Source: a virus (taxonomy: Duplodnaviria; Heunggongvirae; Uroviricota; Caudoviricetes). From it: a DNA stretch of 6,056 nt. The position numbers were made by a program. The stretch covers positions 1 through 6,056 of IMG/VR virus record IMGVR_UViG_2537561992_000026. One strand, written 5' to 3'. This document shows, one piece after another, positions 3,001 to 6,000 of the stretch; within the stretch, counting starts at the first letter, position 1, and each line of letters begins with the position of its first letter.

Positions 3001-6000
3001 TCTGCAAACCAGATTGAAGGCGACCTGGTGAAGACGGTGGGGAAAGCCTTTCCCCGGAATAACAGTTATGCCAGCGGGACGGTAACCGTCACAGTTTACG
3101 ATGACCAGGGCTTCGACCGGCAGATTATCATTCCCCCGGTGCTGTTTCGCGGGACGAAACACCAGAATTTCAACAGCCCGAATCAGCAGTCGTACTGGTA
3201 TTCCACCTGTAAGCTGCAGGTGCTGAAGAACGGGGTTGAGATTTTCCATGAACCGGCAACGGATGTCAGCCGGGTGTTCTCATCGGTGATAGATATGCCG
3301 GCAGGGCGGGGTCATGTCACCCTGACGTTTAATGTGTCGTCGGCCGGTGCGAACAACTGGACGCCGACAACGTACATCAGTGATTTACTGGTTGTGGTCA
3401 TGAAAAAATCCAACGGCAGGGATCAGTATCAGCTGACGGTTTATTAACCCGGACGGGCACCTCAGGAGGTGCCTTTTTATGACTGAAAACAAAGAGGTAA
3501 TCATGCGGCATTTATACGCAACGATATTATTGTTTACTACCCTGCTGGCAGGAATTGCCTTTCCTGCACAGGCTGAAAGCGGACACGGTGCATTTTCCGT
3601 GGGATATGCTCAGGTTCACCCGGGCGGCGTACCGGCATTGTCCGGTACCGGTGCGCGTGCAGGTGATTTAAAAGGGATTAATGTGAAATACCGTTATGAG
3701 TTCACGGATCACCTGGGCGGCATTGTCGCGCTGAGTTATGCATCGGTGAAGAAAAGTGACACGATGAAGACGGGTGAAAATACCTTCCATTATGAAAGCC
3801 TGCGCGGTCGTTATGTCAGTCTGATGGCCGGCCCTGTCTGGCAGCTCAGTGAGCGGGTCAGTCTCTATGGCATGGCCGGGATGGCGTACACCCGCTGGTC
3901 TGACAGTGTTCAGGATTACCGGCGTGATGAAGTGAAACCGGGGTATGTGAAGGAGACCACCACCGCCAGTGATGGCCATACTGCGCGTCATCTGTCGCCG
4001 GCCTGGAATGCCGGGATTCAGTTCAGTCCCGTAGAGACGGTGGTTATTGACCTTGCTTATGAAGGCTCCGCCAGTGGCGACTGGCGCACTGACGGCTTCA
4101 TCGTGGGGATCGGCCATAAATTCTGATTAGCCAGGTAACACAGTGTTATGACAGCCCGCCGGTTCAGGCGGGCTTTTTTGTGGGGTGAATATGGCAGTAA
4201 AGATTTCAGGTGTACTGAAAGACGGCACAGGAAAACCGGTAGAGAACTGCACCATTCAACTGAAAGCCAGACGGACCAGCAGCACGGTGGTGGTGAACAC
4301 GGTGGCCTCTGAAAATCCGGATGAAGCCGGTCGTTACAGCATGGACGTTGAGTACGGTCAGTACAGCGTCATTCTGTTGGTGGAAGGATTCCCGCCGTCA
4401 CATGCCGGGACCATCACCGTGTATGAAGATTCTCAACCGGGGACGCTGAATGATTTTCTCGGTGCCATGTCGGAGGATGACGTCCGGCCGGAGGCACTGC
4501 GCCGTTTTGAACTGATGGTGGAAGAAGCGGCGCGTCACGCTGAGGAGGCGAAGAAGAATGCCGGAGAGGCGGAGACGTCAGCGAGGAATGCCGGCATATC
4601 AGCCAGTCAGGCAGAAGAGAGCGCTGCAAATGCTGACACTTCAGCAGGGGAGGCATCGGAGTCAGCCCGGCAGGCGGCAGAAAGTGCAGCCTCAGCAAAG
4701 CAGTCAGAGGATGCGTCCTCGTCCTCGGCTTCTGCGGCCGCTCAAAAAGCCAGTGAGTCATCACAAAGTGCAGCAGAAGCTGAATTGTCAAGAAAGACGG
4801 CAGAAAGTGCAGCCGGTAATGCAGCCAGGGATGCAACGACCGCAACAGAAAAAGCCCGGGAGTCAGCAGAAAGCGCACAGTCAGCGGAACAAAGCTGGAT
4901 AGCGGCGGAAGAAGCCGTAAACCGAATCCCCACAGTGGTGGGGCCACCCGGGCCAAAGGGAGAACCGGGGCCCGCGGGTCCTCAGGGGCCGAAGGGAGAT
5001 AAAGGAGAGCGTGGCGACACCGGTCCTGTCGGGGCAACCGGTGAACGGGGACCGGCAGGTGATGCTGGTCCGGCAGGCCCGCAGGGGCCGAAAGGCGACA
5101 GGGGAGAGCGGGGTAGAGACCGGTCTGACGGGAAATGCAGGTCCACAGGGTCCAGAGGGAGATACCGGTGCGGCAGGCCCGGCAGGCCCGGCAGGCCCAC
5201 AGGGACCGAAAGGAGAAACAGGTGCGGCTGGCCCGGTGGGGGCAACCGGACCTCAGGGACCGAAGGGCGACCCGGGGGAGACACAAATCCGTTTTCGTCT
5301 GGGGCCGGCGAGCATTATTGAGACAAACAGCAATGGCTGGTTCCCGGGTACAGATGGTGCGCTCATCACCGGACTGACCTTTCTTGACCCCAAAGATGCC
5401 ACACAGGTTCAGGGGCTGTTTCAGCATTTGCAGGTCAGGTTTGGTGACGGGCCGTGGCAGGATGTTAAGGGGCTGGATGAAGTGGGCAGTGATACAGGCA
5501 GAACAGGAGAATGACATGAACATACTAAAAAAACTTATAGCAGCGTCTGTGCGGTTGCGGAAAGCATGATGGCCGTGAACACGGGCAGTCGCTTACAGTA
5601 CAACTGCGACTGGGACCGGCAGACATTCTGGAGTCCGATGAGAGTGGCATTATCCCGGAGCAGGACAGGGTAATCACGCAGGTGGTGATACTGGATGCGG
5701 ATAAAAAGCAGATACAGTGCGTGGTAAGACCGCTGAGGTAGCCTGAGTTTAACGGACACTCCTTCCTGAAATAGAATGGCATCAGAAGGAGCTAATAATG
5801 AGCAGAAAAACCCAACGTTACTCTAAAGAGTTCAAAGCCGAAGCTGTCAGAACGGTTCTTGAAAATCAACTTTCGATCAGTGAAGGCGCTTCCCGATTAT
5901 CTCTTCCTGAAGGCACTTTAGGACAATGGGTTACCGCCGCCAGAAAAGGGCTCGGTACTCCTGGTTCCCGCACGGTGGCTGAACTGGAATCTGAAATTCT

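Follow-up and report, generated by a model that had tools for sequence, protein, structure and literature searches.

The Ail/Lom-family gene in this stretch of phage DNA can be read from either of two in-frame ATG codons, at 3479 or at 3503, and stands between two terminator-like hairpins. Where does its translation start, and is it a moron of the classic kind, as the initial annotation proposed? We analyzed the whole stretch (the window, 6056 bases) and consider it very probable that it carries a standard lambdoid lom that starts at ATG 3503 and is flanked by two Rho-independent terminators, with ATG 3479 standing outside the system as a product of deletions in the draft record. The gene and its architecture are already known, and RefSeq has the correct start. 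The lom gene, its position and its expression in lysogens have been known since 1979.

The lom gene and its place in the prophage

The window is part of a lambdoid prophage: the tail-tip gene J, the Ail/Lom ORF and a collagen-like side tail-fibre gene are followed by an adjoining IS3-family (IS600-like) element, of which the left end is present. The lom coding sequence occupies 3503..4126 on the + strand (207 codons and a stop), as assigned from Pfam, lambda Lom, PDB matches and annotation, and its frame is open to 4126 from 3479 as well as from 3503. J is split over two frames (3..935 and 844..3447), and so is the side tail-fibre gene. Its 3′ part as read (844..3447, + strand), from the tail-tip/host-specificity gene, was delimited using the Pfam gpJ domains, the list of indels relative to Stx2_95 and CP074885, and the J annotation in relatives. 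The stf-type side tail-fibre gene (4191..5321, + strand) was recognized by its Pfam phage_tail_N and Collagen domains and by the annotation of relatives, in which it likewise starts at the equivalent of ATG 4191. The order J, lom, stf is also annotated in Stx2_95, in O111 11128, in CP074885 and in lambda, and many Stx-converting phages and EHEC prophages have a lom that matches this region at 99.1–99.4% identity. This is an ordinary lom, placed where E. coli prophages of the lambdoid (Stx-phage-like) kind usually have it, between J and the side tail-fibre gene.

Family membership is clear from the match to Pfam PF06316 (Ail_Lom; 1.1e-48, 166.1 bits against a cut-off of 23), in which profile positions 1–199 of 199 align to residues 9–215 of the 215-aa long form that begins at ATG 3479. 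Among PDB entries, the solved Lom structure 9wso matches over the full length (3.9e-81), followed by Ail (3qra, 7.6e-13) and the OmpX group (1qj8, about 8e-12). Based on these sequence matches, Lom is predicted to have an 8-stranded beta-barrel fold. From the translation we read a predicted signal peptide, MRHLYATILLFTTLLAGIAFPAQA (3503..3574, + strand), with probable cleavage after AQA and before ESGHG; lambda Lom has ...PARA/EGGHG at the same site. The C terminus ends in the terminal F, with H at position -3 instead of the usual Y. Made from ATG 3503 (Shine-Dalgarno sequence GAGGT, 5-nt spacer), Lom would be a 207-aa precursor with a 24-residue signal peptide, and the mature protein would insert in the outer membrane as a barrel of the Ail/OmpX type.

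The closest counterparts are the loci that encode WP_001216290.1 in EHEC/STEC prophages, including E. coli O111:H- 11128 and the Stx2a phage Stx2_95 (BCI50321.1), where the same gene lies in the same context with 99.4% DNA identity. Three substitutions near the 3′ end of lom (4066, 4108 and 4115) change the ending of the protein from ...GSGD...GVGYKF in WP_001216290.1 to ...ASGD...GIGHKF in the window. The lom of lambda (J02459 18965–19585, 206 aa) is likewise located between J and stf (orf-401). Its product, a member of this family too, is 64% identical in the mature part and agrees in length and signal-peptide layout, and a hairpin plus T-run lies 20–60 nt upstream of the gene, as in the window. 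The downstream terminator and stf start of lambda are almost identical to those of the window, whereas the 5′ third of lom, the upstream hairpin and the J C-terminus cannot be aligned as DNA, and megablast homology begins only at window position 3671. After the upstream hairpin lambda reads TATTAT/TATAAA where the window lineage reads ATTGACTG. By sequence, Ail of Yersinia, OmpX, PagC and Rck share the Pfam family and the 8-stranded barrel fold. Unlike Lom, they are chromosomal or plasmid-encoded rather than phage-borne and lie outside tail-gene operons. These proteins have been linked to adhesion and serum resistance.

We scanned viral contigs for the conserved stf start and obtained 202 usable contexts; phages with other fibre types fall outside this survey. 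A Lom ORF lies upstream of the stf start in 199 contexts. The three Lom-less J-stf contexts look like deletions or rearrangements, and no clean 'empty site' junction between J and stf was found among the 202. The Lom sequences form three clades: the 207-aa type of the window, the 206-aa type of lambda (64% identity) and a 199-aa type that begins MRKLYAAIL (38–46%). Across the survey, Lom alleles as different as these three have identical boundaries.

The start codon and the draft record

A putative Shine-Dalgarno sequence, GAGGT (3494..3498, + strand), recognized from the sequence and from leader variants, lies 5 nt from ATG 3503. The leader consists of the T-tract, ATTG, an A-rich stretch, GAGAGGTAAT and the ATG. 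It is conserved across the Lom clades, although looser in lambda: all three clades have a hairpin, a T-run, ATT(G/A), an A-rich stretch and GAGAGGT ahead of the start, and all three keep the Shine-Dalgarno sequence and the ATG that corresponds to 3503. Lineages of 86–95% protein identity have a spacer with one or two bases fewer, and a TGA thereby comes into frame 18 nt before the ATG; GAGAGGT and the ATG themselves keep their places. In lambda a stop directly precedes the lom ATG, and in the 199-aa clade the TTG of the leader is out of frame. Position 1 of the PF06316 model falls on residue 9 of the long form, i.e., on the ATG 3503 start. PGAP (WP_001216290.1) and DFAST annotate the 207-aa form in relatives, from the ATG equal to window 3503, and most of the protein-cluster members read are 207 aa long. 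Because the Shine-Dalgarno sequence and ATG are conserved, stops lie upstream in sister clades, and the Pfam model, the PGAP and DFAST calls and the signal peptide agree, we conclude from these comparisons that the true lom start is ATG 3503.

For the 6056-base contig, the protein deposited is exactly the 215-aa sequence, and the exact 207-aa sequence of the window's Lom is not among the products on record. The 215-aa form is also on record for 15 other contigs, where it necessarily starts from TTG, for example in the submitter annotation of O145:H28 RM13514. A perfect AGGAGGT (3464–3470) lies 8 nt before ATG 3479, in the loop and 3′ arm of the upstream hairpin. The initial annotation had described ATG 3479 as lacking a ribosome-binding site, which is not the case, even though the motif is within a hairpin. 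It is likely that gene callers pick the upstream start on account of this AGGAGGT. On the choice of start the initial annotation was borne out: it favored ATG 3503 for its good ribosome-binding site (GAGGT, 5-nt spacer) and the lambda-like length of the product (207 aa against 206 aa), and it anticipated an N-terminal over-extension by 8 codons, which is what the deposited products carry. The condition that it named as refuting, conservation of the extension MTENKEVI, came out on the side of the shorter form, as did the comparison with annotated lom starts that it proposed.

Relatives in the lineage of 98–100% identity have an in-frame TTG at the position of ATG 3479, and the codons for TENKEVI are open. 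This lineage consists of near-identical DNA without evolutionary depth. We considered whether MTENKEVI could be a real alternative N terminus, translated from TTG (ATG here) with the help of the hairpin AGGAGGT when the stem is opened. The open frame with its in-frame TTG, the perfect Shine-Dalgarno sequence 8 to 10 nt upstream and the 215-aa products of the 15 other contigs would fit this. Nonetheless, we regard it as extremely unlikely: the frame is open among near-identical sequences, the more distant lineages have the TGA, the lambda stop or an out-of-frame TTG while the Shine-Dalgarno sequence and ATG stay, and both Pfam and PGAP favor the short form. The extension would also place a segment of net charge 0 (two acidic and two basic residues) ahead of the signal-peptide n-region, which is atypical.

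Both in-frame ATGs are present in the window, as the initial annotation reported, but the one at 3479..3481 (+ strand), from which the over-extended 215-aa product starts, is private to this record and is not a feature of the gene family. The start-codon ambiguity therefore does not belong to the gene; the second ATG is the product of indels in an error-rich record. Relatives read ATTG, with an in-frame TTG, where the window has lost two T's. In the junction alignment with Stx2_95, O111 11128 and lambda, the relatives read CCTTTTTTATTGACTG and the window CCTTTTTATGACTG, such that ATG 3479 arises via two single-base deletions in this record only (T6 to T5, and ATTG to ATG). None of the 392 complete E. 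coli genomes carrying the junction (3395–3520) matches the window's version at ≥99% identity. The best of them reaches 97.7% over this interval, a difference that equals three indels. Among IMG/VR viral contigs, the canonical version has 48 exact matches and the window version none. Contigs assembled from eight of eight public runs (several studies) show the same three differences from the window, at 3412, 3473 and 3479, and no indexed run contains more than 0.60 of the sequence words of 3395–3520. The comparison with the WP_001216290.1 loci gives the same picture, with the window alone in having private indels at 3412, 3479 and 3480.

Relative to the closest complete genome, CP074885 (99.6% identity), the window has 8 single-base indels and 15 substitutions over 5735 nt. 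Compared with Stx2_95 there are 0 substitutions between 3126 and 4066, yet 3 indels. Most of the indels alter the length of short runs of identical bases, and several break genes: two G's are missing at 837/838 and an extra A is present at 3412 (J), a private extra base lies near 5114–5116 (stf), and another extra A is found at 5539 (a small fibre-tip gene). The canonical J stop is TGA 3434–3436; the extra A at 3412 puts the end of the gene into another frame, which in the window runs to 3447. Read against the relatives, the J end at 3447 is an artefact of this extra A.

Because 8 single-base indels stand against only 15 substitutions, the two deletions that make ATG 3479 are likely to be sequencing errors in a draft contig. 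It could be argued instead that the eight indels, this pair included, are real mutations of a decaying prophage and that the upstream in-frame ATG is genuine. Decay, too, typically leaves a pattern such as this one, with breaks in J, stf and the small fibre-tip gene and an IS600 copy next to the module, and the sequence is, after all, the deposited record. We consider this unlikely given the 8:15 ratio, the prevalence of length changes in short identical-base runs and the position of two indels in non-coding DNA beside an intact gene. Moreover, the indels occur in 0 of 392 complete genomes, 0 of 48 viral contigs and 0 of 8 runs, and the variant is present in no indexed run. Even if the deletions were real, the resulting ATG would abut the T-tract, its Shine-Dalgarno sequence would lie inside a hairpin stem and the extension would still not be conserved. 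With sequencing error as the preferred reading, neither the frameshifts nor the extra ATG of this error-rich draft should be taken as biology. The value for curation is that the N terminus is over-extended by 8 residues in this record (215 aa) and in about 15 other deposits.

Hairpins on both sides of lom

The upstream terminator-like element (3455..3478, + strand) was identified by terminator scan, folding and covariation. It consists of a hairpin at 3455–3474 with the stem GGGCACCT/AGGTGCCT (8 pairs) and the 4-nt loop CAGG, followed by T5 at 3474–3478, which is T6 in all relatives. The predicted folding energy is -13.3 kcal/mol (z-score -2.15). Among 21 distinct variants from the three Lom clades, 3 of the 8 pairs show compensatory double changes (G-C/A-U, 11:8; C-G/U-A, 15:4; and A-U/U-A), and 92.9% of the cells are paired, whereas slid registers reach only 36–57%. 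The covariation score of the stem was reached by 0 of 500 shuffles. The T6 is invariant across these variants, and the loop and 5′ flank vary. Lambda has a hairpin at the same position with an unrelated stem (CGTCCG GGAA CGGGCG). Judged by this pattern of change, the upstream hairpin is under structural selection, and the direct covariation support for a terminator ahead of lom is a small positive result of the analysis.

The downstream element (4153..4180, + strand), found by terminator scan and folding and nearly identical in lambda, has the stem AGCCCGCC/GGCGGGCT and the loop GGTTCA (hairpin 4153–4174; 8 pairs, of which 7 are G-C; loop of 6). T6 (4174–4179) and a G follow. The element is located 27 nt past the lom stop and 11 nt ahead of the stf ATG, and its predicted folding energy is -18.7 kcal/mol (z-score -2.56). 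A block that begins with the final lom codons, takes in the hairpin and ends at the stf ATG is almost invariant in all clades and in most of the 202 stf-start contexts. Recurrent changes in the stem are restricted to G-C to G-U, which preserve pairing as wobble. An Rfam search returned no match besides Trp_leader over the downstream terminator. This hit is below threshold (19 bits against 41, E 0.61), and we rejected it as generic terminator resemblance.

No other terminator-like site in the window scores as high as the two hairpins, which both lie on the lom strand. The total number of such sites, 9, is not above chance (5.7 ± 2.4 in shuffles), and the case for terminators therefore rests on position and conservation. 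At both sites, a G+C-rich stem-loop is followed by a U-run and its pairing has been kept in evolution, as expected of Rho-independent terminators. There is thus good comparative support for two Rho-independent terminators flanking lom, with hairpins at 3455–3474 and 4153–4174 that are conserved and placed as in lambda; the bracketing described in the initial annotation stands.

We also weighed whether the hairpins might primarily be something else, either stability or processing elements of the late mRNA or conserved boundaries for recombinational exchange of lom alleles. Three Lom clades that share only 38–64% identity have the same leader and 3′ block, as module boundaries would, and contigs assembled from RNA runs cross the upstream hairpin. 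We think this very unlikely, given that an invariant T6 comes straight after a G+C-rich stem at both sites and that compensatory changes preserve the upstream stem while the loop and 5′ flank vary. This is the signature of a Rho-independent terminator, whereas a mere recombination site would keep sequence, not pairing. Terminator, stability and boundary functions are not mutually exclusive.

Expression and moron status

In lambda, RNA polymerase modified by Q reads from pR' through terminators of this kind. By analogy with lambda biology, J, lom and stf would be transcribed as one late transcript during lytic growth, with a strong increase in lom expression. Polymerase without this modification, as in the repressed prophage, would be expected to stop at both hairpins. 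The upstream terminator would then keep stray tail-gene transcription out of lom, and the downstream one would keep the lom transcript from stf. Lysogenic expression of lom would be low-level, as reported for lambda and phi24B, and no convincing sigma-70 promoter is visible here.

We scanned the 3′ end of J and the leader with a promoter weight matrix in the window, in a canonical relative and in a lambda-type locus. From the 3′ end of J to lom the best sigma-70 score is 8.5, compared with a shuffle median of 8.65. A consensus scan found no + strand promoter-like site near lom, and no promoter candidate is conserved between lineages. Only 24 nt separate the T-tract from ATG 3503. Two candidates were considered and rejected. 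In lambda, TCGTCC-17-TATAAA overlaps the hairpin and is not conserved in other clades; in relatives, no -10 element stands at a usable spacing from the TTGACT that follows the T-tract. It is conceivable that the whole unit of hairpin, T6, ATTG, A-rich stretch, GAGAGGTAAT and ATG is a control element for lysogenic lom expression, working as a promoter laid over the terminator tail or as a switch that hides AGGAGGT, or that together with the 3′ block it marks the boundary at which lom cassettes are swapped. The unit is conserved, loosely so in lambda, across the three Lom clades with their protein identities of only 38–64%; we hold such roles to be decidedly unlikely.

Composition does not set lom apart. 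GC is 0.50–0.56 across the gene and 0.52–0.58 in J and stf, which is not the deviant composition expected of a moron, and comparison with the flanks gives no compositional sign of horizontal acquisition. What the sequence does have in common with a moron is a terminator of its own directly downstream (4153–4174 and T6). Of the classic moron architecture of the initial annotation, the terminators were found, whereas no promoter scoring above shuffles and no deviant GC were seen. Since no promoter stands out and GC equals that of the flanks, the moron label leans on the published expression data for lambda and phi24B, and the sequence tests support it only in part. The morons of HK97 and HK022 (Juhala et al. 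2000; reviewed in PMC3594210) are likewise accessory genes in the late structural operon that are followed by a terminator. Like them, the lom of lambda and that of phi24B are reported to be expressed from the prophage. They differ from lom, which has no detected promoter of its own, no deviant GC and a terminator instead of a promoter in front.

The published data bear on lysogenic and lytic expression. Transcription of lom has been observed in lambda lysogens (PMC1151598, PMC7067206), and expression of phi24B lom is uncoupled from induction (PMC3342100, PMC4651098). In contrast, lom went undetected in one microarray study of a lambda lysogen, whose authors remarked on how little was known of its promoter (PMC2147009). 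In the literature searched we found no mapped lom transcription start. Ribosome profiling, as cited in a recent preprint (bioRxiv 10.1101/2025.02.28.640651), indicates that Lom goes up strongly late in infection. The same preprint reports that over-expression of Lom blocks lambda-vir, and suggests a possible role for Lom in preventing phages of its own type from adsorbing.

Sequencing runs provide a last line of observation. Four raw-read runs from 2026 that are labelled as this species lack this lom. Contigs assembled from 8 runs with this lom allele span the upstream hairpin unbroken; their depth does not vary within a contig and is confounded by prophage paralogues. In runs with the lambda lom, the contigs cover the whole phage at even depth and are probably phage DNA.

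Lom alleles between J and stf

The slot between the tail gene J and the side tail-fibre gene stf (ATG at window 4191) is held by three deeply divergent clades of Lom, the Ail/Lom outer-membrane protein encoded at 3503-4126 on the plus strand (loci L135-L243 of the viral contigs scanned for the conserved stf start). The first comprises proteins of 207 aa, the second, of the lambda type, proteins of 206 aa (64% identity), and the third, of the MRKLYAAIL type, proteins of 199 aa (38-46% identity). Across all three the upstream leader (3455-3505) is near-identical, and the 3' block, which spans the final codons of lom and extends as far as the stf start codon (4100-4193), is almost invariant. 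The occupation of one slot by divergent proteins, together with the common leader and the common 3' block, suggests that lom alleles may be swapped as cassettes between fixed boundaries.

The stf start occurs without lom upstream in three viral contigs. In L162 the junction passes through the downstream hairpin, and in L031 and L050 lom is replaced by foreign sequence up to GTTATGAC. These contigs look like deletions or rearrangements and not empty sites. An antisense ORF of 149 codons within lom (3668-4117, minus strand), from a mechanical listing, is a candidate ORF only.

Motifs at the flanking terminators

The hexamer TTGACT lies 3' of the upstream T-tract in all relatives (window 3477-3485; canonical ATTGACTG) and matches the -35 hexamer at 5/6 positions. 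No -10 element was found 15-19 nt from it, and a transcript from this hexamer would begin within lom. A weak Rfam match to Trp_leader at 4099-4181, over the downstream terminator, scores 19.1 bits where the gathering score is 41 (E 0.61); it was taken as a generic attenuator or terminator resemblance.

Indels and substitutions in the window

Compared with CP074885, the closest complete genome, the window carries 15 substitutions and eight single-base indels (837-838, 3412, 3479-3480, 4174, 5114-5116 and 5539). The public runs covering these indels contradict all of them except the one at 4174, a difference in T-run length. The record looks error-rich, and only in it are the genes J, stf and that of the fibre tip 'broken'. 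The extra A at 3412 displaces the end of J (3434-3447); since the canonical stop is the TGA at 3434-3436, the C-terminal residues of J as read in the window are not genuine.

Three substitutions fall near the lom 3' end (4066, 4108 and 4115), where the window Lom reads ...ASGD...GIGHKF and the common form ...GSGD...GVGYKF. The C-terminal beta-signal thus has His at position -3 instead of an aromatic residue which, if real, might weaken outer-membrane assembly.
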